64,000 nt of DNA from Carcharhinus longimanus (lineage: Eukaryota): the NCBI GenBank assembly GCA_030264375.1, contig JASCQW010000072.1, positions 73,682,761-73,746,760 of the forward strand, read 5' to 3'. This document shows, piece by piece, positions 5,042-61,950 of the stretch; positions within the stretch are counted from its first letter, which is position 1, and the number at the start of each line of letters is the position of its first letter. A program made the translations under genes and the position numbers. The notes under the pieces were generated by a model. The model was given only the letters and a program-made list of their open reading frames with translations. It had not been told where the DNA came from and did not search any database.

Positions 5042-5224
5042 TCGCAACATGTGGCCTGCTGCAGTGTGCTCCACTTCTCCTGGTTTCTTGTCGTTTCTCG
5101 ACTGAAGGAAAACAAATGTACTGTCCCCCTTGAGGGAACCCGACTCTTCTCCTCTGTGGATCCTAACATAAAAGTGACCTTCCCACCTGGAGCGGTAAAT
5201 GCAACCCGCAGTGTGAAAATGCAG
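5042..5224 (+). CDS. PIDD1: PIDD1 exon: end of ZU5-1 with first autocleavage motif HFSW, start of ZU5-2
   Basis: tttgtag|TCG...ATGCAG|gtgtgt; SQHVACCSVLHFSWFLVVSRLKENKCTVPLEGTRLFSSVDPNIKVTFPPGAVNATRSVKMQ; phase 0/0. Confidence 0.95.
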
Positions 5225-13000: not shown

Positions 13001-13560
13001 TCACTGTGGGTGCTCCTACAAAACATGGACTGCAACAGTTCAAAAAGGCCCCTCACCATCACCTTCTCAAGGGCAATTAGGATTGCCGATAAATGCTGGC
13101 TTAGCCAGCAACATTAACATCCCATAACAAATAAAGAAAAAAAGGATAACTTGTCTCAATTTTATAATTTACCTCGAGCATCAGCAAACCAATCATTTCT
13201 GTTACTGTATCTGATTGGAGGTCTCCCGATTCAACAAGCTGCATGCAGTGTTTGTACACAAAAAGCCTCCGACAAACTCCTTCAGCCTGAAAACATGGGG
13301 AACCTATCAAGGGGAAACAAAAGGACAAGTTATACTCAATCATTGTTCCAACAAATTTCACTGAATTCATCATTTAGGATAAGCAAGGATAGGACTGCAG
13401 AAATCATACAATCCTTTTGGGGCTGGTACATGGCTTCAAATCTAGCTTTCTTAGTTGTTCTTAGTAAGCATCATTCAATCTTAAATTTGATAATATTCAC
13501 ATGGACTACTGGACATGATAAGCTTCTATACACTGGAATTTAGAAGAGCATGAGGTAACT

Positions 13561-13790
13561 TGATTTCCTGCGGGTGCTCTGGTTTTCTCCCACAGTCCAA
13601 AAATGTGTGGGTTAGGTTGATTGGCTATGCTAAAATTGCTCTTAGTATCCTGAGACGCGTAGGTTAGAGGGATTAGTGGGTAAATATGTAGGGACGTGGG
13701 GAGAGGGCCTGGGTGGGATTGTGGTCAGTGCGGGCTCAATGGGCCGAATGACCTCTCCCTGTACTGTGGGGTTTCTATGTAATTTTTTTT
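13561..13790 (+). mobile_element. HE1-type SINE, 5'-truncated
   Basis: V-domain core and 3' tail similar to 14059-14403. Confidence 0.75.
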
Positions 13791-14058
13791 CTATGTAAAA
13801 CCGTTAAGATCCTGAGGGGTCTTTACAGGATGGAGACAGAGATGATACTTCCTCTTGTGGGAGAATCTAGAACCCGGGATCATTGTTCAAAAATAAGGGG
13901 TCACTCATCTGAGACAGAGGAGGAATTTTTTTTTCTCTCAGTGAGTCATGAATCTTTGGGACACTTCTTCAAAGGACAATGGAAGCAAAATCTTTGAATA
14001 TTCTTAAGGCAGAGCTAAATAGATTCTTAACGAGGAGGTGGAGTTGAGATTACAATTA

Positions 14059-14403
14059 GGGGGGACGGCACGGTAGCACAGTGGTTAGCACTGCTACTTC
14101 ACAGCTCCAGGAACCTGGGTTCAATTCCCAGCTTGGGTCACTGTCTGTGTGGAGTTTGCACATCCCCCTGCGTGGGTTTCCTCGGGGTGCTCCGGTTTCC
14201 TGCCACAGTCCAAAGATGTGCAGGCTAGGTTGATTGGCCATGCTAAAAAAAATTGCCCTTAAGAGTCATGAGATGCAGAGGTTAGAGGGATTAGCGGGTA
14301 AATATGTAGGGATACGGGGGTAGATCCTGGGTGGGATTGTGGTCAGTGCAGACTCGATGGGCCGAATGGCCTCCTTCTGCACTGTAGGATTTCTATGATT
14401 CTA
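14059..14403 (+). mobile_element. HE1-type V-SINE, full length
   Basis: gggacggcacggtagcacagtggttagcactgct...gggttcaattccc (Pol III A/B boxes), V core gtgggtttcctc..gtgctccggtttcc, tail ctatgattcta. Confidence 0.9.
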
Positions 14404-15170
14404 GATCAGCCGTGATCTACTTGAGCTGTTTAAGGAGCCGAGTGGTCTACACCTGCTCTTAGTTCATGTGTTTGTATGTTCTTAACGGTAAGGTTGATCA
14501 CTATGTTTTTTTTCATTTATTTACTACCTAATCAATGTAAATACTGGTACTAAATCAGTAAGAGACATTTTCAGTTGTCATCAAAACTATATTAAAACAT
14601 TTATAGTGCTGAAAATGTGTCCCTAGTTTATTTCTGCACGCAAAACACTAACCACGTGCATTTATTCTAACCAAATACACGTGCTTGTGGAACATGGGAA
14701 TCTGTTGTATCTTTAAACTGGAAAGTAATGCATAAATATTATTTATCTTTGAGCATTCACCTTTAAAAATAGCTCTCACAAGCATCCCAATCTCCTTCCC
14801 TTTCAAAGCATGGCGTGTGATGACGGCACCAACCTGTAACAAAAGTAGTAACACACTTCAAATTGTATCTTCAGACCATTGACTAATCAAGCAAACAAAG
14901 AAGTTCAGGATGCAACAGACTTAATTTTATATAATCATATCATTCATAAATTTACTCCTGTCTCCACATTCCTTTACTGTAATTATATTCTTTAAAATTA
15001 AGCAAGAAAATAACTCACAGATGGAAACTTTTACAAGTATGTTTTGCTGCTTGTGAAATGCCCTCAAATGTTTTCAGAATTTAGGTAATACTGTGCTCAT
15101 AAAAGTTGGGAATGAGCAAGTCAGTGAAGTACTGGATAAAAGCAAATTACTGCAGATGCTGAAATCTGAA

Positions 15171-40285: not shown

Positions 40286-40889
40286 AAAGGTGAGATTTGG
40301 TACAGAGCAGGAAATTATTCTACTCAGGGATACATACATTTGGTGTACTATAGAAACCATTTTGTCCAGCACTATATAAATTGTGTTGATATACAAACAT
40401 AAGGGAAAAAACAGATGTTTTTCATATTCCCTCTGGCATTTTTGAAAATATTGATTTTATCTTGAGTCTTCACAAGTACCTTTGTGGTAAAATTGTTTTC
40501 ATGAAGAATGTTTTTTTTTGAAATAGGGCAGGTACTTGTCTCAATTTGTTCAATTTCGCAAATAACACTGCTTATACCTCTCCTTGCTATTTTTGCTAAA
40601 TTGACAGGTGAACACTCTAAGAACAATACATAAAATCATTGCTAGATTGGTTGTGGGTTTTACGCCTCTTAATTTCTTTGTGGTTCATCTTTGGCCCCAG
40701 TAGCCTCCTCAGTCCAGTGGTTACCCAGTAGAATCTGCCCAAGCTATTCTGAGGATTTCAGAAATGACATTCTTGTGATTTCTACTTCTTTTCTAACCTT
40801 TAAATTCCACCTACCCACCAGTAACTGAGAGGGGGAGTCATGACAAATGGACATTGTTGATTTCATTCCATTTTTTACTTATTTATAAA

Positions 40890-41490: not shown

Positions 41491-41576
41491 TGTAAAACTT
41501 CTTGGATATTACCTATCAAGGAAATGTTTCTTGAACCACTTCTTGTCTTTTCAAGTTATTGCTTCATTTTCTTTAG

Positions 41577-41814
41577 GGGTGACCTGGATAAGCAAATCTT
41601 AGAGATGCTATTTACATGGGCACAATGCAACGTGAGTGTACCAGGCTGCATCAATAAACTAATTCAGGCAATGAAGGAGAGTGATCGCGAAGATATTGCC
41701 GAAGAAGTGCGTTGCATTATTGAACTGGGAAGGAAGAAATATCATGATTCCATTCGCCGAGTAGGACTGAGCCAAGAAAGCAGTAATGAAGATTCAGCTA
41801 TAGCAATGGTGTAA
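41577..41814 (+). CDS. PIDD1: PIDD1 terminal coding exon (death domain, second part, stop TAA)
   Basis: ctttag|G GGT...; (R)GDLDKQILEMLFTWAQCNVSVPGCINKLIQAMKESDREDIAEEVRCIIELGRKKYHDSIRRVGLSQESSNEDSAIAMV*. Confidence 0.96.
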
Positions 41815-44439
41815 CCTGGGAAATACTGCAACTATAGACAATGCATATGAACCTTCCTGGTGATTCTTGAAGATAGAGAGGTTTTTATTTATTTATTCAT
41901 TTTTGGATGTCACTGGGTAGGCCAGCATTTATTGCCCATCCCTAATTAGCATTGAGAAGGTGATGCTGAGCTGCCTCCTTGAACCGCTCTAGTCCATGTG
42001 GTGCAGGTCCACCCACAATGCTGTGAGGGAGGGAGTTCCCGAGTTCTATTTTAGACTTTTATTTTTGCTGGCAAAAGATGTTCATGGGGGACAGTGAATT
42101 CTCAGCATTGCATGGAGAATGGGTCAATATATGCAACTTCCACAGAGCTCATTCCATATAAGTATCAAGAATCACTGTGGTTGTGTTTTACAGAGAAAGC
42201 CAACAAGCTTTTATGACAGCACCAATTGATTTGTAGTGATGTGCAATTTACAATTTGATTTTAGCTACATGATGGGCAATTTTATTCTGTGCATGTTACC
42301 CAGGATAGCATACCTTGCACTTAGTTTAAAATGTCAAGTGAATTTCTTTATCCTTAATGGTGAGGGGTGTCAACAGTGCACCATGGAGGTTCACCACATG
42401 GTAAGAAGCCATCCAACTCATTAAATCTGCAGTGTTTTTCTCAACCTGAGCTACCTAATCTAATCCAACTCTGTTACTTGCTCACTTTGCAGCTTAAATC
42501 TGGAAAATGGGCTTCTTTGCCATTTATTTGCATAAGCCCCTGGTATCACTGAGTTCACCATAGGGTGAACTTGGATTGGAATTCTAGTGCATCACCCAGC
42601 TGCTGTGTGCCACCCTTTACAGCATGAATGAAGGATAAGGTTGGTGAACCTGCAATGACAGGCAGCCTCTGCTTCCTTGCAAAGGAGTTACACTAATGAG
42701 TTTCTGTACTAAAATTTGCATTGTTTAGATGACCTTTGTCCCTAGTGTTTACCAGGCCCAAGTAAAGTAAATTAATTAGTAAACCTTGCCTGGTGAAGTT
42801 AGATTTCTGAAGGTGCCAGTGGCAGTTCCCACACAGCTCCAACGTGGTATCTTCCCAGCTCTAGCTAGTGTGATTTTTTTTTTCATTTTCATCCTTTTTT
42901 GTCACATTGATTGCAATTTGCAACTTATGTCAACTAAAGAGTTCTCTTTCTTTTGTGTAAATTTAGCTACCCATGGAGCATTATAAAAATTTACTACAAT
43001 CAACTACAAGGTTTTACGAGGGGTATAATTAGTGTTAACATCCAGAGAAAAGAGTGATTAAAGTGGGAACAATTTTTTGATATACTGGTATTTCTTTATT
43101 TAAAAATGACAGGTGCACAGAGCAGCATGGGTTATTCCTTTCTAGTACAGAACAGTATGCCAATATTTTGCCACATGTACTGCACATGACATAGTATAGA
43201 AACAAATACAGATATTAATTGAACTGGATCTATAGGTATATCAGTACATAATATACAGTCTATAGTAGCCTTCACGTCAAATGTTTGTCATACTTACTCC
43301 ACCAAGCTGAAGCCAAGTAAGCCTAATGGTTTCTGGATGTATTTAAATGTTTCTATTTATTTAGCTGTGTGTGCAAATATGAATGTGGGTATTATGTTTA
43401 TGTTGGCTTTTTTTTGCACTAATCTTTAATGTTTTCATTCAGGATTGCACTGAATTTAAGAGCCTAATTTGTAAATTTGTTCTCCTTCAAATATTGCAGC
43501 TACTTCATTTTAATGTAACATCAAACTTACAGGAGTTGCATGTGAGTCATAAACAGTGTATACTTAGGAATTCATTTATTCTAAAATGAGTACACAGGAG
43601 AAATATCGATTGCCTTTAGTTTTCAACACATATGGAAAATTGGTAATAACTTATGCATCTTATGAGAAAATTGCATCCTAAGAAAAATAGGACAGGGTTT
43701 TACAGCCTCACTCATCCCGCAACCTTAAGGTCAATGGACTTTCCCATTGTCTGCCCTTCACCCGCTCCAATTCCTGTGGTGGGTGAAGTGTAAAATTCCA
43801 GCCATAGAGTCAGTCTTTAACATGTGAGTAATCTGATGCAGCCACCCACAAGTATAAACTATCAGTTGTCTAGGTCGAATCAATAAATGAATGACATATC
43901 TAAGAGGACACTGCATCCCAGGGATTTGTTCTGTTTTTACCAGTCTCTGAAAATGAAATGTAGGCTGGTTGGGTCAGTCCAGTGCAATAATATGTTACCT
44001 CTAAAGATATGACTTTTTTCACAATTGGTATGTGCTTTAGGCATTTATCTTACTAAATTATCTGCCACTGTTCTAATGCTTATTTACATTTCAGATTATA
44101 GTTTAACAACACCATAAAATATATAAAGATGAGCATGCGCATTCAGGCTACCTTAATACATTCATTGTGAAATAATCCAAATATTGCAAGGATTTTCACT
44201 TCTCAATAGTCATTTAACACAGTTAAACAAAGAGAAACATTTATCCTTGCAATAACACTGATAACATGGTGGGTCACAGGCTTTTAACAAGTTGTGGATA
44301 TGTCTGTCATTCCTTCACTCATATGTTGAGGGAGGAGATTTGTTTTCCTGGGGATTAACCCTTCCTCACCCATAGATTTTGACCTTAAAGCATTCCATTT
44401 GCCTCACTTGCACCCCCTTTTTTTATTTTTTCATTCACA

Positions 44440-47100
44440 GGATGTGGGAATTGCTGACAAGGCCAGCATTTATTGCCCATCCATAACTGCCCTAGAAGAG
44501 ATGGTGGTGAGCCACCACCATTAATGGCTGCAGACAGGTTAGTGAAGGTACACACTCTGTGCTTTTAGGGAGGGAGTGCCAGGATTTTGACCCCGACGAC
44601 AGTAAAAGAACAGCAATATATTTTAAAGTCAGAATAGTGTGTGACTTGGAGGTCAACTCATTTGCCGGCTGCCCTTATCATTCCAAACAGTGGAGGTCAC
44701 AGATTTTGAAAGTGCTGCAAAAAGAGCCTTGGCTCATTTCTACAGAGCACCTTCTAGATGGAACACATTGTAGATATAGCATGCTGGTAGTGGAAGAAGC
44801 CAATATTTAAGGTGATGGACATGATACCAGACACATGGGATACTGTGTCCTGAAGGGTGTCAGTCTTTTTGAGTGTTGCTGGAGCTGCACTCATCCAGGT
44901 GAATGGAGAATATTATATCAAACTCCTGACACTTTCCTTGTAGTTAGTGCAAAGGCTTTGGGGAGTTAGACGGTGAGTCGCTTACTGCAGAATGTTAAAC
45001 ATCTGACACGTTCTTGTAGCCACAGTATTTATGTAACTTGTCTAATTATGTTTCTGGTCAACAATGACCTCCATAAGAACATAAGAAATAGGAGCAGGAG
45101 TAGGCCATCTAGCCCCTCGAGCCTGCCCCGCCATTCAATAAGATCANNNNNNNNNNNNNNNNNNNNNNNNNNNNNNNNNNNNNNNNNNNNNNNNNNNNNN
45201 NNNNNNNNNNNNNNNNNNNNNNNNNNNNNNNNNNNNNNNNNNNNNNATCCCCCTCGCTATAAAGGCCAACATTCCATTCGCCTTCTTGATCACCTGCTGC
45301 ACCTGCAGACTGGGGTTTTGCGACCAGGATGTTGATGTTGAGGAATTCAGTGGAGATAATGTTATTGAATGTCTGCTTTGAGATTGGATTTTGCCTTATT
45401 GGAGATGGCCGTTGCCTAGTATGTATGTTTCTTGGCACTTATTAGCCAAATTCTGAATACTTTCCAATTTTATAACATGCGACTTCAGACGACTTCAGTG
45501 TTATGAGGTGTTCCAAATGGAACTGAACCTTGTGCAATTTCAGTGAATGTCCCAACTTTTAAAAAAATTCATTTACAGGATGTGAGCGTTGTTGGCTGGT
45601 TCAACATTTATTGTCCACCCCTAACTATCCTTGAGAAGGTGATGGTGAGCTGCCTTCTTCAACCACTTGCAGTCACTGGGGTATAGATACACGCACAGTG
45701 CTGGAGTTATAGGATTTTGACCTAGCGACAATGAAGGCACGGTGATATATTTTCAAGTCAGGATGGTGAGTGTGTTGGAAGGGACCTTTGAGGTGGTCGT
45801 GTTCCCACATGTCTTTGGATTTATAACGAAGGGAACATTATTCATAAAGCAGCTACTGGATGTTAGGCCTAGAACACCTTCCTGAGGAACTCTTTCAGGG
45901 CTGAAATGACTGACTCCATCCAGTGGAGATCTTCCCAGTTACAGTTCTTTGATGCCACATTTGCTCAAATGCTGTCTTGACATCAGGTGTAGTTAATCTC
46001 ACCACTCTTCTAGAATTCAGCTTTATTGTCCATGTTTGGAACAAGGCTTTAATGAGGACTGAAACTGAGTATTCTTAGTGGAACCCAAACTGCCATCAGC
46101 CAGTAGGTTATTGGTGAGTAAATAGCACTTGATAGCACTGTCAATGACATTGTCGACAGTGGTCAATGATCAAGAGTAGACTGACGGGGCCATAATTAAC
46201 AGGGTTGTAATTGTCCTGTTTTCTGTGAACTGGTTTTATTTGGGCAATTTTCCACATTGTCATGTAGATGTCAGCACTGGAACTGTACTGTAACAGTTTG
46301 GCTGGAATCTCAGATACTTCTGTGGAACAAATCTTCAGCACAAAAGCTGGAATGTTGTCATGCCCTTAGCCTTTGCTGTATCCAGCGTGCTCAGCTGTTT
46401 CTTGATATCATTTAGAATGAATCAAATTGGCTGAAGACTGGCATCTGTAGTGTTGGGGACATCAGGAGGAAACCAAGATAGAACATCACCTTGGCACTTA
46501 TGGCTAAATGTAATTTCAAATGCTTCAACCTTATCTTTTGGGCTCATTCAAGACTCCAGCACCATTAAGGATTAGGATATCTGTAATTTTTTCCACCACC
46601 TTACACAACTGGATGTGGCAGGACTGCAGATCCTTGTCATAAGAGTCATAGAATTTTACAACACAATAAGAGGCCCTTTAGTCCATCGTGTCTGTGTCAG
46701 CCATCAAGTATCTATTTATTCTAAACCCATTTTCAAGCACTTGATCTGTAGCTTGATCTTGATCTGACCCATTGGTCATGGAATCACTTAGCTGTCTATT
46801 GCCTGGTACATCAACTGATTAGCATGCAAATAGTCTGATGTAGTAGATTCATCAGTTTTGCACTTCATTTTTAGTTAGACCCAAGTACATTTTGTGTCCT
46901 TGATACCATCAGTATTTCTTCCAAGTGGTGTTAAACATGGAGGAGTACTAATTTATTAGATGAGAGAGGATGGTAGATTAATCAGCAGGATAGTTCCTTA
47001 CCCATGTTTAACCTGATGCCATCAGACTTCATGGAATCCTGTGTTAATGTTGAAGACTCCCAGAACCATTCCCTCCTGATTGTGTACCCCTGAGCCACCA
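44440..47100 (-). mobile_element. Long degenerate CR1-superfamily LINE with nested CR1 pieces
   Basis: Reverse-strand RT motifs MWKIAQIKPVHRKQDNYNPVNYGPVSLLLII (46141-46341); nested HER1-type fragment 45073-45325. Confidence 0.8.
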
Positions 47101-49726
47101 CTGCACTGACTCCCAATACTCATATGTCTATTGTTTTTAATCAACAGCTGCAGCAAAAAAAATGTAGATGATAGTGTCATCTAAAGTACTTAGTGACTTC
47201 GATATTTCCTTAATTAAATCCAATTATAAATTATGAATATAATTTGGAATTAGAAACATTGTGTTAAGCATTCAAAATAAAAACAAAGTTAAATTGTTCA
47301 TGTAAAATTAAGCTGCTGAAGTTACATGTCCTGTTGGCTAAGTTGAAAATTCTATTTATAAAACTGTTTAACAGTAAAATGTGAAAGGAAATGTATAAAA
47401 TGTGTCCTTCTGTGATCATGGTCATGTAGAGTGAGCACTCTGAGGTCCTCCAGTGAACTTGGACATATAGGCTGAGGATGCTGTGGTCTTCCTGAGATCA
47501 TGGACATACAGACTGAGGTGCTCCTTACACAATTACCATGCATTGGAGCATGAATGGGCTGTTCAACCGCTTGAGTTTGTTTTGTTATTCAATGAGATCA
47601 TTGTGATGGTGGAGCTGGACTACCCATCTGCCTGGGCCAGTAATAATTTATCAAATAAATTATTAACTGAGTTAGCAGCTTTGTTTTTGTTGTAGAGAAC
47701 ATAACATAAGAAATAGGAGCAGGAGTAGGCCATCTGGCCCTTCAAGCCTGCCCCGCCATTCAATAAGATCATGGCTGATNNNNNNNNNNNNNNNNNNNNN
47801 NNNNNNNNNNNNNNNNNNNNNNNNNNNNNNNNNNNNNNNNNNNNNNNNNNNNNNNGGTCTGGAATGTACTACCTGAAAGTGTGGTAGAGGCAGGTTCAGT
47901 TGAGGCATTCAACTTTGTTTTAAATGATTAGTTGAATAGAAACAGTGTTGGGCTTTGGGAAGAGACAGAAGAATGGCACTAAGTTACAATGCTCATTAGG
48001 AAAGCCAGTGTAGAAATGAGGGGCTGAATGGCCTCCTGTGCCGTAACAATTCTGTGATTTTAAGGTTATGTCCACTCATTCTAATCTCCACCACAAGTGA
48101 AAAAGTTTCTCTCCACCCTATCAATTCCTTTCAAATTTCTAAAAATCTCAAGCAAGTTACCCCTTAACTCTCTATATTCCAGGAAGTACAAGCCTAGTTT
48201 ATGTACACTGTCATCATAATCTAATCTTTGGAACCCTGATAACATTCTGCTGAATCTATACTGCACCCTTTCCAGGACGAATGTGTCCTTTCTAAGCTAC
48301 ACTTCCTAGAATTATAATGTGGTCCAAAACAAGGATTGTAAAGCCATAGCGAAACTTTCTCCCCTTATATATTCTTGCCTGCTTGTTATAAAGGCTTCAG
48401 ACATTTAGAGTAAGTGCATTGAGGTCTGCTTAAGATCTAAGCAGTACTGAGGGATGCTCCAAGTCAATTGCCATTGGCTAAACCAAAGCGCAAACTGTGC
48501 TAGTGGATGTAAATTCGTAATTTGACCCGGACATTGCTGGCCTCCCCAACCCCCAGTGACCCAGACAGCGCTAGCCAGCCCATCCCTCAGTGACCTGGAC
48601 GTTGCTGGCCTCCCTCCCCCACCAACCCTGACTGCAGAGTGGCAGTGGGACTCCCCTGCCCCCAATAGGTCCCAGCCCCTTGGCACTGTCCAATGACCAA
48701 TGGACAGTGCCAAGATGTCCCCTCGACTTTGGCACTTTGCCTTTTGGGCAGTGCTGGCAGCTCAAGCTGACACTGCCAAGGTGCCAGTGCTCATGGGGCA
48801 CCCCCCTGTGCCTGACCTTCTGGAGGGGGGCTGGCTTGTCGGGNNNNNNNNNNNNNNNNNNNNNNNNNNNNNNNNNNNNNNNNNNNNNNNNNNNNNNNNN
48901 NNNNNNNNNNNNNNNNNNNNNNNNNNNNNNNNNNNNNNNNNNNCTAAGCCTGCTAATGCCATTTAAATTACATTGTCCCAATTGTTTCTAATGCAGCTCC
49001 AAGCCAATTTCTGGCACAGAACTGACAGCGCTGGGAGACACGCTCAGGGCTGGACGACCAGGTGAATCCCACGGATCAGGTGCCACCTAAATCTCCTGGC
49101 CCACTGCGCGATAAAAGCAGCACAGTGAGATGGGAGAATTGCTCTGAGTATCTGTGGGGTCCTTGATTATGCTGGCTGCTTTTCCAAGGCAGTGGAAGTG
49201 TAGATGGAGTTAATGGATGGGAAGCTGGTTTGCGTGATGGACTGGCCAATGCTGCTACTTAAAGGAAAGCAGAGAAGTCCTCTCAATGGCCTAGCCAACA
49301 TTTACCCTTCAACCCATACAGTTAAACCATTGAATGAGTTATTTATCTGATTGCTGCTGTGGAAGTTGACTTACATAAATTGTTGTTTTCCAAAAATACA
49401 AAAGTGATTGCACTTCAGAAAAGTGCTTCCTTGATTGTAATGTTCTAAGGGACATGCAGAGCTACCTTAAATATGAAAGTCCTTTTCTTTGTGTATCTCC
49501 ATAAAATCATGTAACAGACATTTCTCAAGGCTGAAAAGTCCAGCACCTTTTCTAGTTTTTAAGCCTGAACCTACAGTCTGAATTAAGATGGGGAAGGAAA
49601 TGCGACATCTTTAAAGAACAACTGTTTGTAATGGCCCCTACAGCAGATTATTGTGAAATCAGTCTCTAAATTAACACATAACATTGAATTGAACAATTTC
49701 CAATCTTAATCACTGAGCCCACTGTT

Positions 49727-50222
49727 TCTCAACACCAAGTTAAAGTCCAACAAGCTTTGAGTATTGCTCCTTCCGCAGGTGAGTGAAGAGTTGTGTTCAC
49801 AAACAGGGCATACATAGACCCAGACTCAAATTACAAGATAATAGTTTGAATGAGAGTCTTTACAGGTACAGACACATGAGGACGGCCTCAACCAGAATCT
49901 TGGGTTCATGATATACTATCTATAACCCCCATGACTTGCCTGGGCTTGCAAAATCTCACTAACTGTCCTGGCTGGAGACAATTCACACCTCTAACTTCTG
50001 CTTAACCTTCTCTCCACTCATTTTCTGCACCTGTAAAGACTCGTATTCCAACCATTGTCTTGCAAATTGAGTTTGTGTCTATGTATGCCCTGTTTGTGAA
50101 CACAACTATTCACTCACCTGAGGAAGGAGCAACACTCGAAAGCTTGCACTAAACCTATTGGATTTTAACTTGGTGTTGAGAGACTTCTTACTGTGCTTAC
50201 CCCAGTCCAATCTCCACATCAT
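49727..50222. mobile_element. Penelope-like element remnant with ~140-bp inverted repeat, GIY-YIG C-terminal remnant and hammerhead motif
   Basis: Arms ~49727-49868 and ~50028-50182 are reverse complements; the spacer encodes THEDGLNQNLGFM; CTGAGGA...GAAA at 50118-50141. Confidence 0.75.
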
Positions 50223-50439
50223 GCGCACTGTATTGGACAACAGATTTTGCTAATGATTTGGCTGTTGCCATTATGGCTCCCCTAGACCTATCTTTTAATT
50301 CATAATTGGTCCTCCAACACATTTTCTTGCACCATCATCATATCATTAATCAGTTATGCACCTTGTTCTTCTTTCACGCCTCTCCAGCTCCTTTCCCTGC
50401 CTTTGTCCTTGCTTAAAATCAGACATGGACATGGGTTGA

Positions 50440-51445
50440 ATCCAGAGGTGAGCTAAAAATGACTGCCCTTGACATCAAGACAGCAAAATTGAAGTGAATG
50501 GGATTCAAGGACAATATGGTTATGGTGGTTGGAGGTCAATCATCTCAGATGCAGGATGTCACTACAGGAGTTCCTCAGAATAATCACTAGGCCCAGCCAT
50601 TTTCAGCTGCTTCATTAAGTGCCTTTCCTTTTACCTAAGGGCAGAGGTGGGTGTGTTTGCTGATAATTGCACAGTGTTCAGTATCGTTCACAATGCCTCA
50701 GATAATGAAGCCATCCACACCTACATGTTGTAAGAACTGGATGATATTCAAGCTTCGGTTGGTGACCATTTCTAGCAAATGAGTACCTAACCATCTCGAC
50801 CGAGCGCCCAATGCCAAACCACAACCTTAGGTTATTATTGATCAAGAACTTAACTGGACCAGCCACATAAATATTGTGGCTACAAAAGCAGATAAATCAG
50901 GCTGGGAATTCTGTGATGACTAATTCACCTCCTGACTCCCCAAAGCCAGGTTAAGTCAGGATTGTGATGGAATACTTTCCAATTGTGCAGAAAAGTGCAG
51001 CTCCAACAATAGTCAAAAACTTGACACCATCCTAAAAAAGCAGACCATTTGATTCACACCCTATTCACCACTTTAAGCATTCATTCCCTCTAAACCATAG
51101 CAGCCTGTGCCCCATCAACAAGATGCACTTGCCAAGCTCCAACAGTATCTTCCAAACTCAAAACCTCTACCACCTAGAGGAACAAGCACAGCAAATGCAT
51201 GGGAACACCAGTACCTGCAAGTTCCTCTGCAAGTCACATAATATACTGACTTCAAACTATATTGTCAGCCCTTCACTGTAGCTAGATCAAAGTCCTGGAA
51301 TTTCTAATCCTCTCTAATAGCACTCTGGGTGTACCAATACCATATGGACTGCACCATTGAGGATTACCATCACCTTCTCAAGGGCAGTTAGGATAGACAA
51401 TAAATGCTGACCTAGCCAGTAATGCTCACATTCCATGAATGATTA
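50440..51445 (+). mobile_element. CR1-superfamily LINE RT/3' fragment
   Basis: Remnants of GVPQ.S.LGP..FSCFI and FADNCTV; family 3' end caataaatgctg.cctagccag. Confidence 0.75.
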
Positions 51446-52267
51446 AAATAAAATCTCTGACTTTTACTGATGAAAATTCATCAACCTGAGAGGTTAACTT
51501 TGTTTTTCTCTCCACAGATGCTGACAGACTTCAGTACTTAGAACAATTTTTGCTTCTATTCTTAATTAATGGGTTGTTTAGAATATTAATACTCAGTATC
51601 TAGCATGGAAGATGTACAAAATAAGGAGAGAATAAATTACAAGGAATGATCAATAATCCTGTCACATTTCTTGATTCTGTACAAACTATAACCATTGAAA
51701 TAGCATTCAGTTTGTTATTTACTTCAGGCTATTAATTGATACTCACCACGTTAAAAGTTTTTGGTGTTCAAGAAATGTTGCAGCAGAAATCTGTCTGTGT
51801 TATCTGGACTGGACCCTCCTTTGAGAGCATGTGTGAATTTTACTTTAAGCCATCTGTGACTGCATGAGATAGTGAATTGCCTGCAGAATGTTGTGTTTTA
51901 TGTTCTGAGGGGGAAGAAAGTCTTAAATAAGTGCATAAGCGTAATTTGAGAACACACCAGACACCCTGGATCTCAGACAGCATTATACAAGCTGTACAAA
52001 TAGATTGAAGATGCACAGTACACCCAGTGCTAATAAATTGAAGAATGGTTGGTGATAGTCCATAAAATTAATAAATAAACTTAAACTGAGGAGGACACAA
52101 AAGTATATAGATAGGTTATGTGAGTAGGCAACAAATTTGACAGATGGAGTATATTGTGGGAAAGTGTCCATTTTCTTGCTGATATTTTCTACATTGCTGC
52201 ACAGGGAATGTAACATTTCCCTATTTTCATCATTCCCATTTAATTAAGTTTTCTTTAACAAGTATTT

Positions 52268-52575
52268 CATAGAATCCCTACAGTGCAGAGGAGACCATTT
52301 GGCCCATGGAGCCTGCACTGACAACAATCCCACCCAGGCCCTATGCCCATAACCCATGTCACCCTGCCAATTCCCTTGACATTAAGCAGCAATTTAGCAT
52401 GGCCAATCAAGCTAACCTGCACATCTTTGGACTGTGGGAGGAAACTGGAGCATCTGGAGGAAACCCACACAGACACAGGGAGAACATGCAAACTCCACGC
52501 AGACAATGACCTGGGGCTGGAACCAAACCTGGGGCCCTGGCACAGTGAGGCAGCAATACTAACCACTTTGCCGCT
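52268..52575 (-). mobile_element. HE1-type SINE, full length
   Basis: catagaatccctacagtgcag tail, V core and tRNA-like head on the reverse strand. Confidence 0.88.
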
Positions 52576-52899
52576 GTGCAGTCTGTGTTATTACTTTTCA
52601 TAACCTTTTTTGTTCCTGCACCATTTATGACACCATTATCATTTTTTGCACTCTGACCTTTGTTCTGATGTTATCTTTCGGATAGCATTGTTCCACCAGC
52701 CACCCACTCCCTTCACTTTACTGGTTTAAAGTCCTTTCACTGGCACTACTAGTTCTTTTCCACTTGGAACTTTAGATCCCAGCTATACAGTTCCTTCCGG
52801 TGTCACTTGTACCTCCTTGGACTGCTTCTTTCTTCAAGTTGACTTGTTTAGTTTTCTGACCATTACTCCTGCAGCCTTACGAGATTGAAAACATAATTA

Positions 52900-55800
52900 A
52901 AAGTAGTCAGTGCACATTTCAAAAGCTAAGTCATGCTTAGCAAACAATTCTTTGAAGAGGTAATAGGAAGACTAAGCTGTGATAATGTAGCCATATACTT
53001 TCAAAAGATGTTCAAAAGACTGTCAGTAACACAATAGACATATGACACAGATGTGGAGCATGTCGAGACAGGGATAATATATGGTAAATTAGCTAAAAAA
53101 ATAGAAAACAAAGTCTGGATAAAAGGCACTCGCTTAAAGTTGGAGGCACGTAAAGAGTGATGTTCCACAAGGTCAATGTCTGGACTGCTGTTATTCAAAA
53201 TTTACATTAATGCTTTGGATTTAGAAACAAGTAACTTTGATTTCAAAGTTTGCAGATGATACCAAACTGCTAGTGAGGATAATATACTACAATAAGACAT
53301 TGTGAAAACTTGCAGACTGGGAAGTCAAATGGGAAATGAACTATTCTTAGAATCAAAGAGAAAGAGACCCTTCAGCCCGTCATGTCTATGCTGGTCATCA
53401 AACACCTTTCCTAAACCCATTTTTCAGCAGTTGATCTGTAGCTTTGTGTGCTGCTTAAACCTTGCAAGGGTTCCTGCCTCTACCACCCTTTCAGACAGTG
53501 CATTCCAAATTCCCAACTCCTTCTGGGTGAAATGCTTTTCCTTGAATCCCTTCTAAATCCCCTTTCCCTTACATTAAATCTATTCCCTCTGGTCATGAAA
53601 TCACTCTACTAAGGGGAAATGTTTCTTTCTATCTATGCCCCTCAAAATTTTGCACACTTCGTTTAGCAAAAGACCCAGCACCAATCCCTACAGTATATCA
53701 CAGGACACAGACTTCCAATCACAAAAACAATCTTCAATTATCACCCTCTGCCTCCAGCCAATAAGCCAATTTTGGATCCAATTTGCCAAAATGCCCTGGA
53801 TCTCATGGGCTCTTACCTTCTTAATCACTCTCCCTCGTCAAAAACCTTACTGAAATCCATTTATGCTACATCAACTACATGGCTCTCATCTACACACCTA
53901 GTCACCTCCTTGAAAAATACCATCAAATCTCCTCAAAAAAAGCCATGTTGAAATATCCTTGATTAATCTTTATCTCTCTAATGGAGATGAATATGTTTCC
54001 TCAGATTTTTTTCTAATCATTTTTCAACACTGATGTTACATTCACTGGCCTGTTATTACCTGCTTTTTATTCCTAATTCCCTTCTTCAATAATGGTGCCA
54101 CATTAGCTGTCCCCCAGTCCTCTGACACCTCTCCTGAGGCCAGAGAAGATTTGAAAATTAGTATCAGGATCTTCTCCCTTGCCTCACACAGCAGCCTAAG
54201 ATACATCTAATCTGGACCTGGGAATTTATCCACTTTTGGGACCACTAAAATCATTAACACCTGCTCCCTCCAAATGCTAATCTGTTCAATTATCTCAGTC
54301 CTTGTCCCTGTTTTCTATCCCTGCATCGTCCTTCTCCTAAGTGAACACAGATGCAAAATATTCACTTAATACCCCACCTATATCTTTGGGCTCCACAGAC
54401 AAATTTTAGGTGATAAACTTTGGTAGGAATAATAGAGACATCACCTACACCCTAGGTGGGGCGGAAGAGCAAATGGATATAAGTACACAAGCAAAAACAA
54501 ATCATTAAGAGTCACTATGTCACAGGTCCTATCTGTCTCTGTGTTCTTAAGGATGAGTCCAGCCATGTTGCCATGAAATGCTTAAGCTAGTTGGGCCGTG
54601 CCATCCCACCTGACCATCATGGAGAAGTTTATGCAGAAAGACACCTTTGACCATGAGTCTATCAGGTAGTGGTCCACCTGTAACTTCTTCAAGGACTTGT
54701 GAGATAAGGAGATAGTGGATCCTGTTGTTTAGTTCCCTGAGCAGACTGTCAAATTCATTTGATAGAGTACTTCATCACCAGAATTTTCAAACAAATGCCA
54801 AGATTTAACTTGGCAGGTGGTGAGAAGAGCTTTCCTGTCAGACCCGTCCAGTGTGCCTGCTGTCCAACTCCCTCTGCACATTCCCCTCAAGGTGGCTGTG
54901 GTGGGGAAGAAACTGACAGAAAAAACTAATGGAACAATAGGTGATTTTTCACTTTCATGCTCAAGTGCAGGCTAGGAACATCCCAATAAGGACAAACAGT
55001 AAGGATGCCAAAAAACACAGTTCCTTAGAGAGATGGAGGTTATGATAAAACATCAGAAGGATATATGACGCATTTCAGGCAAGTCCATAAGTGGGAACCA
55101 GGTCATACACCACAGTTTGAGAGGCGAGGTGATGAGTAAAGTAAGTCTGACAAAGAGAGTAAGAGAATGAATTGATAGAAGAAAAATGGAAGCCCAAAAA
55201 ATTCTAGCGTGTAAATAGAGAGTTCTATGAGGTGGAGCTGGTCCTGGTGGTGACAAAGAATATGTATACCTAAAACTGCAGGACAAGCCTAGAATACAAA
55301 ATGAGTTCTTTGTATTGGGTTTATCAATGATGAGGTCTCTGACTAAATATCAGTCAATGCAGCGATAATGGAGACAATGGATAGTGTGAAAATTGTCAGG
55401 GAGGAGTTACTGGAAATGTTGGCTATGTTTTGGGCAGGTAAATCGCCCATTCTGGATGGTTTACAAAACACGTTGCCAAAAGAAGTGGGGATGGAGATAG
55501 CAAAGTGCGGGCCTTTCTTTCGATCTTCCCTGGAAAGTGTATAAGAACAGTCCTGCAACAAAAGGCCAGTTAGTTTAACATCAATGATGGGTAAGGTTTT
55601 GGAATCTATGATAGGTAGGAAAAATCAACAGACAAGTTTTGAGTGAATTAGGGGGAGCCAGCACAGATTTGTAAAAGACAGATTGTTCTTGACTAACTGA
55701 GAGGGTTGATAATGAAAATGGGGTGGATGTTGTTATATGGATTTTAAGAAAGCATTCAACAAGTGCAACATAAAAGAGAATAGAGCCAATGTTTGATGAA

Positions 55801-56255
55801 GTGTCATTTAAAGTCAAAATCTTTTGGCTCTATTCTCTTCATAGATATTGTCAGTCCTGCTCAGATTTTCCAGAATTTTATGTTTTTGTTTCAGATTCCA
55901 GCATCTGCAATATTTTGCCTTTACCGCATAATAGGCTGGTTAACAAAGTCTAAGCTCATGGCTGTAAATTGGGAGAGGGAAGTGTGCACCAGTCACTGAA
56001 GGTAAGCATGCAGGTGCAGCAGGCAGTAAAGAAGGCAAATGGCATGTTGGCCTTCATTGNNNNNNNNNNNNNNNNNNNNNNNNNNNNNNNNNNNNNNNNN
56101 NNNNNNNNNNNNNNNNNNNNNNNNNNNNNNNNNNNNNNNNNNNNNNNNNNNNNNNNNNNATATTCAATCCCCCTCGCTATAAAGGCCAACATTCCATTCG
56201 CCTTCCTGACCACCTGCTGCACCTGCAAACCGGGTTTTTGCGACTCATGCACAAT
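52900..56255. mobile_element. Cluster of nested, decayed CR1 fragments (both strands) with a Tx1-like piece at ~54520-54915
   Basis: KFADDTKL (53245), RPVSLTSMMGKVLES (55565), QVQQAVKKANGMLAFI (56010); Tx1 zf-RVT-like LTWQVVRRA...GGCGGEET. Confidence 0.7.
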
Positions 56256-56479
56256 CTTCTATGCTTTCCCAACCGCCTGTCATTTCCAGTAATTATCAGG
56301 TGGCAGCATGGTGGTACATTGATTAGTACTGCTGCCTCACAACATCAGGGAGACACAATCGATTCCAGCCTTGGGTGCCTGTCTGTGCGAAGTTAGCACA
56401 TTTCCCCCCTCTCTATATGCATTTTCTTCGCATGCTCTGCTTTCCTCCCACAGACCAAAGTTAGTATGGATTAGACAAT

Positions 56480-56850
56480 TCTCTATATGCACACATTGGC
56501 ACACGCATGCTCAGATATTTATCCATACATACGCATAGACATACAACATACTCAGATATATATCGATACACACAAATAGACACACGTATGCTCAGATATG
56601 TTTTTGTGCTCACACATGGACACGCATTCGCATCAGAAATTTATCTATACATAGACATAAACACACACATATCAGATATTTATCTGTGCGCACACGCAAG
56701 CTCAGAAATATATCTATATATACACGCTCAGGCTATAACATTGTAATCTCATGTTCAGATATTTATCTATATATACATATTCAGATATATAACTATACAC
56801 ACAGACGTTCAGATATATGTGTATATGCAAACACGTCTACGTCTGAGATC
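56480..56850. repeat. Degenerate AT/AC-rich tandem repeat (~30-bp unit, gctcagatatttatctatac...)
   Basis: tcagatat recurs about 10 times at ~30-bp spacing. Confidence 0.6.
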
Positions 56851-57574
56851 ACCTACCAAGAGATTCAAGAACAGCTTCTTCCCTGCTGTCATCACGCTTT
56901 TGAATAGACCTACCTTATAATAAGCTATTTTTTTCTCTAAACGCTAGCCATGACTGTAACACTATATACCGCACCCTCTCCTTTCATTCTCCCCTATAGA
57001 ATCGATAAACGTCATATCTGTAGAGTACTCAAGAAGCTATATTTTTCACTGCATGTTAATGCATGTGCAATAATAAATCAAATGAAATTAAACACACATG
57101 CGNNNNNNNNNNNNNNNNNNNNNNNNNNNNNNNNNNNNNNNNNNNNNNNNNNNNNNNNNNNNNNNNNNNNNNNNNNNNNNNNNNNNNNNNNNNNNNNNNN
57201 NNNNNNNNNNNNNNNNNNNNNNNNNNNNNNNNNNNNNNNNNNNNNNNNNNNNNNNNNNNNNNNNNNNNNNNNNNNNNNNNNNNNNNNNNNNNNNNNNNNN
57301 NNNNNNNNNNNNNNNNNNNNNNNNNNNNNNNNNNNNNNNNNNNNNNNNNNNNNNNNNNNNNNNNNNNNNNNNNNNNNNNNNNNNNNNNNNNNNNNNNNNN
57401 GCACAGACACAATCGCACACACAAACACGCACACACACAATCACAAACACATACACACACATATATTTACACACACAAACATATATATATCTCCAGATGG
57501 CTGGGATCTACTGAACTAATCCAATTGTCTCTAAAGTTGAATAGAACCCTTCACTGTACAGAGTAACATCTCAC

Positions 57575-57904
57575 CTTCCCTTTCTTCAGTTGCTTTGGGC
57601 TTCGACACACTCTTCGTCCAGTATTCCCCTGGTGTGCCACGTTGAACGATACAAGTGCAGACAGCGCCACTTTCCCAAGTTACCCCCGACACCATGACAT
57701 GACTTCTGATGCTGTAGGTCCCGTCCTTCTCCATTGTCCCGGGATCACTCGACCCTTCAGTGACGTAACCGGAAATATTCCAGAAAACAGCAATCTGATT
57801 AGAAGAAACTCCACTGACCAAACACACGAAGGGCACGGTACCATTCACATCCGGTTCAGCCGGCGGGACAAATACCAGCAGGGCCGTCTGGTTGGTAGAA
57901 CTGT
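57575..57904 (-). CDS. Ig C1-set domain exon of the VJ-C1 gene (read-through of the donor would stop at 57531)
   Basis: ctgtccag|AC AGT...GAA G|gtgag, phase 1/1, 330 nt, 90-nt intron after the V exon; DSSTNQTALLVFVPPAEPDVNGTVPFVCLVSGVSSNQIAVFWNISGYVTEGSSDPGTMEKDGTYSIRSHVMVSGVTWESGAVCTCIVQRGTPGEYWTKSVSKPKATEERE. C1 hallmarks: CLVSG..V.W, DGTYS..S...V....W..G....C.V. Confidence 0.92.
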
Positions 57905-57994
57905 CTGGACAGAGATTGAAACATAGTTCTCGATTAATTTACACCAAATGGTACTGCTGTGCACAATCTGAATTAACTTCACTTGCTCTCTTAC

Positions 57995-58321
57995 CCCCAA
58001 CCAGTAGTGTGTGTCCATTCTGGAGTGCTGTAACGCCATACTTCTCAGCACAGTAGTAGGAACCTGAGTCATTCGCCTGGACATTGCGAATTTCCAGTAT
58101 CAATTCAGATCTGCCGTTGTCTTTTTTAGGAATAAACTTACAACCGTCCCACTGACAGGTTGTATTGATTAGTTTTGGGATTTCACCAACATGTTGTTTG
58201 TACCAGAAATAGCTGGTCACCAATTCCGAAAACGTGCCGTCACACGTGAAATTCACCGTCTGGCCGACTTCAGCGACCACTGCGAAGGGCCTTTGAGTTA
58301 GCGAGGGTTCGGAATCTGCAA
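57995..58321 (-). CDS. Ig V-set domain exon with germline-joined J-like G strand (VJ exon of a non-rearranging VJ-C1 gene)
   Basis: ctctctag|TT GCA GAT...GTT GGG G|gtaag, phase 1/1, 327 nt; ADSEPSLTQRPFAVVAEVGQTVNFTCDGTFSELVTSYFWYKQHVGEIPKLINTTCQWDGCKFIPKKDNGRSELILEIRNVQANDSGSYYCAEKYGVTALQNGHTLLVG. Has the B-strand Cys, WYKQ and D.G.YYC. Confidence 0.93.
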
Positions 58322-58529
58322 CTAGAGAGATTATTGATACATTACCACAAATTATTTCGACATAGAAAGCTGCCGTTTGAAAAAAATCTCCTGTAAATTA
58401 AGAACAATCTCATTAATCTTCAATGATACTTCCTTAGATTTATTTGCCAATATGTGTTGTCTTCGCTTGAAAGGAAGAAGCAGAAAATCCCTTGTATCGA
58501 ACACTAAGTCGCATTTGCAGAGCTGTAGC

Positions 58530-58800
58530 CGGGCGGCATGGCTGTTGGCACCATTGCCACACAGCGCTAGGGACCCGGGTTCAATTCATAGTTTGGGTCA
58601 CTGCTTGTGCACGTCTCCCCCGTGCCGGCATGGGAGTTTTCTCCCACCGTTCGAACGCGGTGCTGGTTAGGTGCGTTGGCGGTGCTAAATTCTGTCTCTG
58701 TGTACCCGCACTGGTGCGGGAGTGTGGCGACTCAGGGTTTTTCACTGCAACTTTATTGCAGTGTCGATGTAAAAGTAAAGATTACTTATTAGTCACAAGT
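58530..58800 (+). mobile_element. HE1-related SINE upstream of the V exon
   Basis: gggacccgggttcaatt B box; cacgtctccccgtg core. Confidence 0.7.
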
Positions 58801-58858
58801 GAAGCTTACATTAACACTTCAATGAAGTTACTGTGAAATTCCCTTGTAAGCCGACTCA

Positions 58859-59900
58859 CATAAGAACATAAGAAATAGGAGCAGGAGTAGGCCATCTAGC
58901 CCTTCGAGCCTGCCCCGCCATTCAATAAGATCATGGCTGATCTGAAGTGTATCAGTTCCACTTACTGCCTGCTTAATTCCATAACCCTTAATTCCCTTAT
59001 CGATCAGATGAATGGCAATAAGGGACACTATAAAATGTCGCTTCATCAATGACCTTCCCTCCATCGTAAGGTCAGGAGTGGGGATGTTTTCTAATTATTT
59101 CACAGTGTTCATCACCATCACACCTCTCCAGATGCTGGAGCTGTCCGTGCCTGTGTGCAGCAAGACCTGGACAACATTCAAACATGGCAGGTAACATTCA
59201 TGCCCCACAAGTGCCAGTCACTGACCATCCACCACAATCTAACCTTCGCCCCTTGACATTGCTGAATCTCTCGCCAGCAGCACCCAGTGGTCAGAGATTG
59301 AACTGGGCCAGCGAAATATCCCAGAGCAGGTCAGAGGCTGGGAATTCTGTCATGGGTAACTCCCAAAGCCTTGTTTTGGTCTCCTTTTCTGAGGAAGGAT
59401 GTTCTTGCTCTCGAGGGAGTGCAGCGAATATTTACCAGGATAATTCCGGGGATAGGGGGACTGATGTATGAGGAGAGATTGACTAGGTTAGGATTGTTTT
59501 CACTGGAGTTCAGACAAATGAGGGGGGCGGTTCTTGTAGAGACTTATAAAATTCTAACAGGACTATTCAGGGTAGATGCAGGAGGAATGTTCCCGATGGT
59601 GGGGGGAGTCCAGAACCAGGGGTAGAGGATTCAGTGTAGACCATTTAGGACAGAGATGAGGAGATATTTCTTCACCCAAAGAGTGATGAGCCTGTGGAAT
59701 TCATTATCACAGGAAGTAGTTGATGCCAAAACATTGAATGCGTTCAAGAGGCGGCTGGATATGGCACTTGAGGCAAATGTGATCAAAGATTGTGGGGAAA
59801 AAGCAGGATTAGGTGATTGAGTTGGATGATCAGCCATGATCTTGGTGAATGGCGGAGCAGGCTTGAAGGGCTAAGTTACCTTTTCCTACACCTATTTTGT
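58859..59900. mobile_element. CR1 fragments (reverse 3' tail 58859-59010; forward RT C-terminus and tail 59371-59900)
   Basis: FWSPFLRKDVLALEGVQRIFTRIIPGIGGLMYEERLTRLGLFSLEFR. Confidence 0.85.
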
Positions 59901-61080
59901 ATGAATACAAGGGCCAGTGTCCAATTAGATAAAATTGGCTTAACCACAGAAAGCAGTGAGTCAGGGTCGATTATTGTATTTTGGATTAGAGGAAGGTGAA
60001 GTAATTTATTATTCACATATGAACTTATCACCATGTCTCTCCTCACAATTTTGGTTCAGACGGGTTGCAGTCACCTTTACTGGATCTGTTATTAGTGTAA
60101 AACAGTAAGTTTGCTGGCATCAGAAAACAACGTTACAAACTAATTGAGAGGGATTTCAGGTCACATTGCCTGTTTGCATTCTTTTAACATTTTGTTCTAA
60201 TAGTAGTGATTCACATTTAATGTGATTTCTGACATATTTGCAATTGATTTGCCAAATTAGTACTTACCCCCAAATGAGCAGCAGATCAGTTGGTGTGGTG
60301 GGAAGCTAATCTCCTGCTCAGATGTTACAATGAACAGCAGGAGTGAACCATTCCCAGCGTTTATCTGAAACCTGCACTGCTGTTGGATGATTAACAGAAC
60401 TTTTTGTTTTTGGTAATGGGAAATACAAAACTCAAAGGATTTGCCACTGAATGTATGTTCTCTTTTTTAATGCAAAGGTTGTTTAAGATGGGGCAATGAG
60501 TAAGTTCATGCAATGTAAAACATTTACATTATTGTATCAAACTTCCATACACGTTCCTGAAGATAAAGGTTTAAAAATTACATATCAGTCTGATCAATGC
60601 AAATTTGTACTTTCCAGACCAATTATCATTTCCCTCCCCCACCCCCACTAAAAATGCACGACAGGAGAGTGGGGGAGAGACTTTATTCTTTCAAAAATAT
60701 ACTTTATTCATAAAAATTTGTAGAAGTACCTTACAAAATATTTCAACCTACATTTCAATTTGAAAATGCCAGAAAGTGCCATAAAAATTTGACTTGCCCA
60801 CTCCTCTGTGCGAGTGTAATTCCTTTGATATTTACAATATACATTCCAATGTCAGGCATGCAGCCCGGAGGGAGAGGAGGGACTAACATCTCCAATTGAA
60901 ACTTAAGAGAGTGCAATAGAATGTAAGTTATTTTAAGGTGATAAAAAGTGCCTCAGCACAATTTCAGTATGGTATTCATGTTCATTGTAGGGGGAGGGGA
61001 TGTGACCCACAGTGTTGAGGGAGGCGGCACATAGACACTGCAAGGGGGGCGGGGGGCATGGTGACACATTGGGGAGGGAG

Positions 61081-61520
61081 GGGCACGCTAACATAGTGGT
61101 TAGCACGTCTGCCTCACAGCACCAGGGACCCAGATTTGATTCCTGGCTTGGGTCNNNNNNNNNNNNNNNNNNNNNNNNNNNNNNNNNNNNNNNNNNNNNN
61201 NNNNNNNNNNNNNNNNNNNNNNNNNNNNNNNNNNNNNNNNNNNNNNNNNNNNNNGGCACAGTGATTAGCACTGCTGCCTCACAGCACCAGGGACCCAGAT
61301 TTGATTCCTGGCTTGGGTCACTGTCTGTGTGGAGCCTGTTATGTTCTTTCCTCCCCCACCCCGTCTGTGTGTTTCCTCTGGTTTCCTCGCACATCCCGAA
61401 AGACATGCTGGTTAGGTGTATTGGCCGTGCTAAAGTCTCCCTCGGTGTATCCGATTTTTCACAGTAACTTCATTGCAGTGTTAATGTAAGCCTATACGTG
61501 ACATTGACAAATAGACTAAA
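61081..61520 (+). mobile_element. HE1-related SINE, head duplicated across an assembly gap
   Basis: ctgcctcacagcaccagggacccagatttgattcctggcttgggtc occurs on both sides of the N run. Confidence 0.75.
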
Positions 61521-61639
61521 CTCAAATGTAACAGATTGGGAGGACACAGTAAGAAGGGTTTGCCTGCTGTAACAGCAGCACACAGCATTGCTGCTTGCAA
61601 GACTCGCTGGAAGCTCTACACACACAGTCTGACTGTCCA

Positions 61640-61950
61640 ACGTTGCTCTGGCGCCTGACCCTGTAGCTCGCGCAGTCTCGCGCTACTTTCCTGCAGAGCC
61701 AACCGAGCGGACTGAGATGCGCGCGTGCACGCCCCTCTGGCTTGCGAGCGCGGGGAGCGGGCGCTCGCTGTCCTTTGACTTGCGCGCGCGCACTCACATT
61801 TACACACGCACGGGGGGACGGGTGCGCGCTGCCAGCCTGGGTGTGTGGACGTCGGGAGCAGCCATAGCAAATCCTGTGTCCAGATGGTATATTTTTTGCA
61901 GAGTGAGGGAGCAGGCAGGCTGGCTGAGGTAAGAAACGCCTGGGCGAAAT
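61640..61950 (+). promoter_or_regulatory. CpG island promoter and probable non-coding first exon of the next gene (donor GAG|gtaag at 61928/61929)
   Basis: Sharp local rise in CpG/GC in an AT-rich background. NRF1-like TGCGCGCGCGCA (~61781) and TGCGCGCGTGCA (~61718); strong splice donor. Gene identity is not visible in the window. Confidence 0.7.

Follow-up and report, generated by a model that had tools for sequence, protein, structure and literature searches.

A VJ-C1 copy, probably misplaced, in the Carcharhinus longimanus assembly and its family of non-rearranging receptors

Exons of the window copy

The window analysed here is a stretch of 64,000 nucleotides from Carcharhinus longimanus (GenBank assembly GCA_030264375.1, contig JASCQW010000072.1), and its features are listed in Table 1. 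A VJ exon and a C1-set exon lie between PIDD1 and SLC25A22, with PIDD1 on the opposite strand, upstream of the VJ-C1 piece. The 3' exons of PIDD1 were missed by a Death-domain search and by a scan of 79 short ORFs and were recovered by motif; the exon that we take to be the last was assigned to PIDD1 from sequence motifs. A mitochondrial-carrier exon 55 kb beyond the window end is presumably SLC25A22, a name given from a sequence motif. Elsewhere in the window, positions 10936-11139 (plus strand) gave a Pfam SYS1 match (E 3.8e-6) with a translation unlike that of a regular exon; it may reflect a decayed copy or chance.

Table 1. Features of the window (positions counted from its first nucleotide).
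Feature	Position	Strand	Remarks
PIDD1 Peptidase_S68 exon	5045..5101	+	Pfam
N-terminal FANCI exons (two) within an intron of PIDD1	13104..14857	-	internal mis-scaffolding control
Likely last PIDD1 exon	41570..41811	+	start approximate; ~15.8 kb from the C1 exon
100-N run, 3' side of the piece	56060..56159		two sides without overlap
Stretch homologous to cluster paralogues	56486..58938	-	about 2.4 kb
Read-through past the C1 donor to a stop	57531..57574	-	stop at 57531, the end point of the first-pass annotation
C1-set exon	57575..57904	-	330 nt; phase-1 donor GTGAGA
V-C1 intron	57905..57994	-	90 nt
Single-exon VJ domain, type A	57995..58321	-	327 nt; both ends in phase 1; donor GTAAGA
LINE-like 3' tail	58858..59008	-	cluster-type sequence gives way to local sequence here
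Local flank, repeats and single-copy DNA	59046..61154		46-bp overlap with the next contig

The first-pass annotation, made from the letters of the window, had described an intact V exon continuing past YYC into a G strand and a phase-1 donor, followed by a short intron and an intact C1 exon, and we confirmed all of these. After YYC, the G strand reads LQNGHTLLVG, without FGxG. An additional Cys pair lies within the CDR2-like loop, and CDR1 and CDR2 each carry a one-codon deletion relative to the paralogues, with the frame kept in both. The V-C1 intron shared 81-87% identity with those of the five paralogues in which it is complete. The C1 exon carries the family signature CxC on its F strand, and its phase-1 donor leads to the transmembrane (TM) exon in intact paralogues. 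A short read-through of the C1 donor, as in the window copy, was also present in three of five paralogues checked, so a secreted form may be possible by this route.

Both domains matched Pfam above the cut-off (V-set, E 7e-10; C1-set, E 8e-11). The V domain was predicted to fold as a V-set domain with its G strand at residues 103-107 (pLDDT 79.8), and a fold search with it gave a top Z of 12.4 with many ties among antibody, TCR and CD79b domains. The PDB sequence matches ranking best were antibody domains. Scanning the whole window for recombination signal sequences (RSS; at most one mismatch in the heptamer and two in the nonamer) returned three matches, the nearest 5 kb off and none within 5 kb of the VJ exon, in agreement with the annotated lack of an RSS. 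The single copy noted previously holds for the 64 kb, which contain one V and one C1 of the type-A kind; in the genome there are 17 more type-A V copies plus type B.

The copy had also been read as a complete single gene, and this part found no support: its leader, TM and cytoplasmic exons are absent, and it belongs to a multigene cluster that lies elsewhere. Leader, TM and tail queries that do find other paralogues had no match across the window and the 60 kb that follow it, and no hydrophobic ATG-donor exon resembling the family leader was found near the copy. Homology to the paralogues ends within 1.1 kb of C1. On the other side, close paralogues carry the leader ~90-170 bp past the point where the window enters the LINE-like tail and then unrelated DNA. 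Genome-wide, the queries gave 4 leader, 16 TM and 14 tail matches, none on C72, the sequence that holds the window; the true numbers may be higher, and some of the exons counted may be haplotypes. The nearest subgroup had 9 TM and 8 tail exons versus 7 other V exons, and the spare TM and tail exons sit on unplaced contigs. The window copy is thus the VJ and C1 of one type-A member, without leader, TM or tail, and a functional gene at this site is very unlikely.

A minus-strand, exon-like stretch at ~60260-60360 was considered as a new leader and ruled out, as it has no in-frame ATG. It has good splice signals and lies upstream of a GC-rich island with a plus-strand donor (61600-61930); it is perhaps an antisense non-coding exon from a neighbouring promoter.

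Placement of the copy in the assembly

The first-pass annotation treated the PIDD1-SLC25A22 interval as a meaningful locus, but the placement is probably an assembly error, given a split FANCI gene and a junction in a high-copy repeat. FANCI is a single-copy gene. Its profile was scattered over three chromosomes, with parts 3-37, 36-96 and 132-221 on C72, C190 and C163, respectively, so the assembly is mis-scaffolded in places. The junction of the VJ-C1 piece falls in a LINE-like tail whose first ~90 bp are near-identical across many copies and common to paralogue C29075. Beyond this tail, the flank belongs to the locus, since its 46-bp overlap with the next contig is locus-specific (no other SINE copy examined matches within 3 mismatches). 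The same overlap ruled out misplacement of a whole contig with a leader past the right-hand gap. A 2.4-kb cluster-type segment has therefore, in our judgement, probably been mis-joined into the interval via a young repeat. The explanation as a whole, a mis-joined type-A VJ-C1 lacking leader, TM and tail that comes from an A-B family of inhibitory receptors, is the one we favour on balance.

A real and recent orphon is a less probable but substantial alternative. Here, a 2.4-kb V-C1 fragment would have been copied from the cluster by repeat-mediated ectopic recombination and would now be a leaderless pseudogene; the family interpretation would be left as it is. The piece passes into local 5' DNA without a gap, and assemblers usually permit gapless joins only with read support; the FANCI piece, by contrast, has a gap on either side. 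Both ends of the piece lie in repeats. Comparable pieces with V and C1 alone occur on C99 and on C27, where the V contains a stop. Real dispersal may also occur in other sharks, as family members lie on two sequences each in Mustelus and Scyliorhinus canicula. Against this, V-C1-only or TM-only pieces on C99, C27 and C109 adjoin N runs, an N run follows close behind C1 in all four dispersed V-C1 copies examined, the assembly scatters other genes too, and unplaced contigs carry spare TM and tail exons. The window copy shows no decay and a functional selection pattern (see below), so an orphon would have to be very recent.

Sequencing runs bore on both readings. In run X1, V-C1 contigs had a depth of 14-21 versus 6-9 in the flank (~2x), which fits a recent real duplication; collapsed cluster copies would give the same. 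In run X2, the nearest V-C1 contigs differed at 27 of 661 bases (4.1%) versus 28 of 1587 (1.8%) for the flank (p 0.002), so that the divergence of the piece does not match that of its surroundings, contrary to an orphon. None of the contigs of four runs bridged piece and flank. In run X7, the summed contig depth over the family exons (window 57610-58090) was ~1000-2200 versus ~10 in the flank, much higher than in X1 and X2, which hints that the size of the family may differ widely between species.

That the copy is a complete gene standing alone at a new, conserved locus, with a product perhaps secreted by intron read-through, is very improbable. Its frames and splice sites are intact, the read-through stop at 57531 would end such a product, and a small exon could be hidden in the N runs (774 N from 40000 to 57575; 100 N above 58322). 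However, the failure of the leader search where its positive controls worked, the lack of a hydrophobic ATG-donor exon and the early loss of homology behind C1 all stand against it. The copy itself carries little weight; it is incomplete, its address is probably false, and its position is unfit for synteny.

Two chain types and their predicted pairing

Of the 157 candidates from a genome search with the V domain, 150 were scored, and 32 matched: the window itself, 17 further copies at 50-71% and 14 V domains that are distant. Searching with C1 returned the same places and an additional group at 40-48%, which we call type B. The two types differ in the J motif, which is the canonical FGNG in type B and LQNG in type A, including the window. 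Scaffold C10 carries six A and seven B loci, interleaved. C166 carries a head-to-head A/B pair that has TM exons and, for A, a tail exon; its B copy has YYR in place of YYC. No RSS-bearing split member was found among 16 loci scanned, the best having at least 4 mismatches of 16. These loci form a multigene family of non-rearranging receptors with two chain types in shared clusters. No copies were found on C81, the MHC-bearing chromosome; C10 is unplaced. A Pfam search for a marker gene near the C166 pair (248 of 430 candidate ORFs) gave only integrase fragments and one weak repeat; the fragments, of an LTR-type element, lie ~15 kb from the pair (L229:2338-3010, G000:C166).

Protein searches returned at least 58 relatives, 57 from 12 sharks and 6 batoids and one from Dallia; a further search added at least eight type-B proteins and one gar protein. 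The databases label them 'immunoglobulin kappa/lambda light chain-like', heavy-chain-like or uncharacterised. Relatives are thus present in 18 elasmobranchs and in bony fish. None from tetrapods or chimaeras appeared among the matches listed in these word-indexed searches, and all that atlas searches brought up were generic clusters of V+C1 and of SIRP. The window C1 was 41% identical to that of gar over 82 residues. The gar and Dallia relatives are also pre-joined, and gar has a canonical FGxG J.

Full-length relatives from the 18 elasmobranchs and gar share one layout: leader, VJ, C1, stalk Cys, TM and an ITIM-like tail, with one C1 in each shark relative. We surveyed this anatomy in 68 relatives among the matches listed (58 A, 8 B, 2 bony fish). 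A TM segment was present in 41 of 58 A (six not parsed, 11 without), seven of eight B and both bony-fish proteins. All 50 TM-bearing relatives have a Cys just before the TM, whose core is uncharged in 46 and charged in 4, and 33 of the 50 have a YxxL tail. A strict ITIM pattern was found in 11 A tails, one B tail and gar; position -2 to the tail Tyr is Pro in 16 of 27 A tails and Thr in four B tails, outside the strict consensus. Profiles of A and B align from leader to TM (E 3.6e-47). Four database isoform models (P0005, P0007, P0015 and P0052) skip the TM exon and keep the tail, which suggests putative soluble splice forms.

The V loops of the window copy differ in their evolution from the rest of the domain. 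Compared with six close paralogues, dN/dS was 2.2 in the three loops versus 0.53 in the framework, with non-independent pairs; for C1 (three paralogues) it was 0.42. Replacements private to the window copy occupied 11 of 32 loop codons versus 7 of 75 framework codons (p 0.0035). By this pattern, we infer that the exons evolved within a working, diversifying receptor.

Modelling of A and B ectodomains from Heterodontus gave a dimer score of 0.70, versus 0.01 for the best of three controls. The runs share at least 82% of contacts, with a partner pLDDT of at least 82, and the interface comprises V-V, C1-C1 and both stalk cysteines. The dimer mark, calibrated without antibodies, was passed by 51 of 78 solved versus 2 of 108 mismatched pairs (eukaryotes, 39 of 65 versus 2 of 126). 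Fab and TCR structures closely resemble the modelled pair, so the pass may reflect this resemblance. The model points to a likely pairing of A with B as a disulfide-linked, TCR-shaped dimer.

Alternatively, A and B may act as homodimers or monomers, like NITR/SIRP-like multigene inhibitory receptors, and their co-clustering may reflect duplication only. Each chain type has its own YxxL tail, type A is without the FGxG bulge used in V-V pairing, and in batoids and most sharks only A-type proteins were among the matches listed. UrIg2 is itself a homodimer, according to passages of PMC12227049. We regard this as the less likely but a real alternative: against it stand the modelled V-V, C1-C1 and Cys-Cys contacts and the fact that at least four sharks have retained A and B side by side. 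In Mustelus, Heterodontus and Cetorhinus, the two types have neighbouring RefSeq accessions.

With A-B pairing as the preferred arrangement, a mechanism can be proposed. Each chain would be encoded by a VJ exon that is fixed in the germline, and its diversity would arise from gene number and loop evolution, not from RAG. The paired V domains would bind a variable ligand, either a self marker or a pathogen, through their germline loops, and the stalk cysteines would link A to B. An uncharged TM implies that no adaptor of the CD3, DAP12 or FcR-gamma type would be engaged. The YxxL tail would recruit an SHP-type phosphatase and give an inhibitory signal. Intact members are thus predicted to be membrane chains, which would likely signal inhibition.

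Relation to known antigen receptors

C1 trees were built with 80 and 51 rows out of 161 C1 domains (plus three added to the 51-row set), and V trees with 65 and 38 rows from 130 plus further added rows. Reference rows came from the same genome; we assigned their identities from sequence motifs and position, and the UrIg2 label alone was checked against the PDB. The TCR C rows were beta- and gamma-like only, and the set held no verified NITR or SIRP rows. In the 80-row C1 tree, A, B and Dallia formed one clade (100/100). In the 51-row tree, a clade of A, B, gar and Dallia (100/98) lay outside IgL, IgH, TCR beta/gamma and UrIg, and a constraint joining A to IgL was rejected (p-AU 0.0035). The V tree recovered A (100/98) and B (99/97) as clades and united them at only 85/86. 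None of the V constraints was rejected (p-AU 0.185 for A with IgL, 0.076 for A with UrIg and 0.124 for A, B and the fish sequences together). UrIg types formed separate V (100/98) and C branches apart from the A/B family, and NCR3-like V rows also branched apart. From the C1 clade shared with gar and Dallia, we infer that the A/B family is distinct and predates the shark/bony-fish split.

The first-pass annotation had raised the possibility that both domains nest inside an IgL or TCR clade: C1 falls outside these, and V has a clade of its own, which the AU test allows to stand as sister to IgL. Its view that this is no typical shark germline-joined IgL cluster gained strength, as V and C lie 90 nt apart here versus 1.9-2.9 kb in six joined IgL clusters of this genome. 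This distance, the C1 trees and the TM and tyrosine-motif tails also support the gene type that it had proposed, a non-rearranging single-exon VJ plus C1.

Passages of PMC2193156 describe RAG joining of shark light-chain genes in germ cells, and the family could in principle stem from an IgL or TCR orphon joined in this way. Its relatives are labelled light chain-like in databases, antibody domains are its best PDB sequence matches, and the AU test on V did not reject a grouping of A and IgL. We consider such an origin extremely improbable, given the C1 clade outside IgL and TCR beta/gamma, a TM and YxxL tail that IgL lacks, and a TM that is uncharged, unlike that of TCR. Moreover, no split, RSS-bearing member occurs among the 16 loci, and the bony-fish relatives are pre-joined as well.

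Shark germline-joined IgL genes share with the A/B family a fused VJ followed by one C1 in many copies (passages of PMC2193156 and PMC12227049); they differ in their long V-C distance, in being secreted without TM and in their separate clades. The family resembles TCR in its layout of V, C1, stalk Cys and TM and in the predicted two-chain pairing, and differs in lacking RSS and rearrangement and TM charge, in having its own tyrosine motif and in its separate C1 clade. NITR, SIRP and NCR3 are expanding families of germline VJ-like inhibitory or paired receptors. They are alike in this expansion, whereas their membrane-proximal domains are I-type, two C1 or none.

Chicken PRARP1 and PRARP2 are reportedly paired non-rearranging VJ genes whose products form disulfide-linked dimers with an ITIM/ITSM-like tail. 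The V-C1 layout is said to occur in non-avian species, with a canonical J-like FGxG and bony-fish relatives. Xenopus VJC1 genes are likewise said to combine a single-exon VJ with C1. By these descriptions, the annotated resemblance to PRARP and VJC1 was borne out in anatomy. The A/B family shares with PRARP a single-exon non-rearranging VJ, the V-C1-TM layout with an ITIM-like tail (TM and tail being absent from the window copy) and bony-fish relatives, here gar and Dallia. A paired, disulfide-linked dimer like that of PRARP may also be formed, in view of the head-to-head pair on C166, the stalk Cys in 50 of 50 and the modelled dimer. Type B and gar have the FGxG motif, and type A, with the window copy, does not. 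It differs in being a multigene cluster with diversified loops, versus one PRARP pair, and in having no copy found on the MHC-bearing C81; for PRARP, linkage to the MHC or an MHC paralogon is mentioned in passages of PMC10751288. With Xenopus VJC1 it shares the single-exon VJ plus C1, and differs in that no tetrapod relative was among the matches listed. PRARP is named in PMC10751288 and PMC11599192, the former also mentioning Xenopus VJC1, and the passages concerned hold no shark data.

In passages of PMC12227049, UrIg and UrIg2 are elasmobranch non-rearranging VJ genes with three or more C domains that form disulfide homodimers. The A/B family is alike in its elasmobranch non-rearranging VJ, C1-set domains and (predicted) disulfide dimers. 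It was excluded as UrIg or UrIg2 by its one C1 and by C domains that do not group with those of UrIg; two chain types and a YxxL tail set it further apart. The same paper (2025, legend to Fig. 2) proposes that antigen receptors had a precursor of two domains, VJ and C1, and its shark candidates are multi-C homodimers. The A/B family has just this layout in a membrane form; it comprises two types of chain whose loops are diversified, and its members appear in databases under the names of light chains or as uncharacterised proteins. The family offers testable material on V-V heterodimers and on repertoires without RAG, and is a candidate inhibitory receptor system of shark lymphocytes. At its most far-reaching, and doubtful in this full form, the family might be an undescribed shark two-chain germline 'TCR without RAG', with dozens of A/B chains forming combinatorial inhibitory heterodimers with diversified loops, and a living sister of the VJ-C1 gene split by the RAG transposon. 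No description of a shark A/B cluster was found in the literature searched; the most relevant papers lie outside it and may describe one. The family's LOC numbers are absent from the supplements searched of PMC12227049 and PMC10751288, whose figure-only supplements could still mention the family.

Other loci in this genome also carry VJ-like exons. L190 (G000:C105:18337300-18339500), L191 and L128 form a second, unrelated single-exon VJ plus C1 group; as they lie outside the A/B clade in both trees, they are another VJC1 candidate. Single-exon VJ-like domains with GxG motifs were seen at L164 (C1:19.46 Mb), L176 (C81:98.29 Mb), L156 and L157 (C137, C99) and L206 (C130); of these, L164 joins the V domains of gar and Dallia in the tree with weak support (90/81). 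At L194 (G000:C109:18860000-18869999), two UrIg2-like V exons lie ~4 kb apart on opposite strands.
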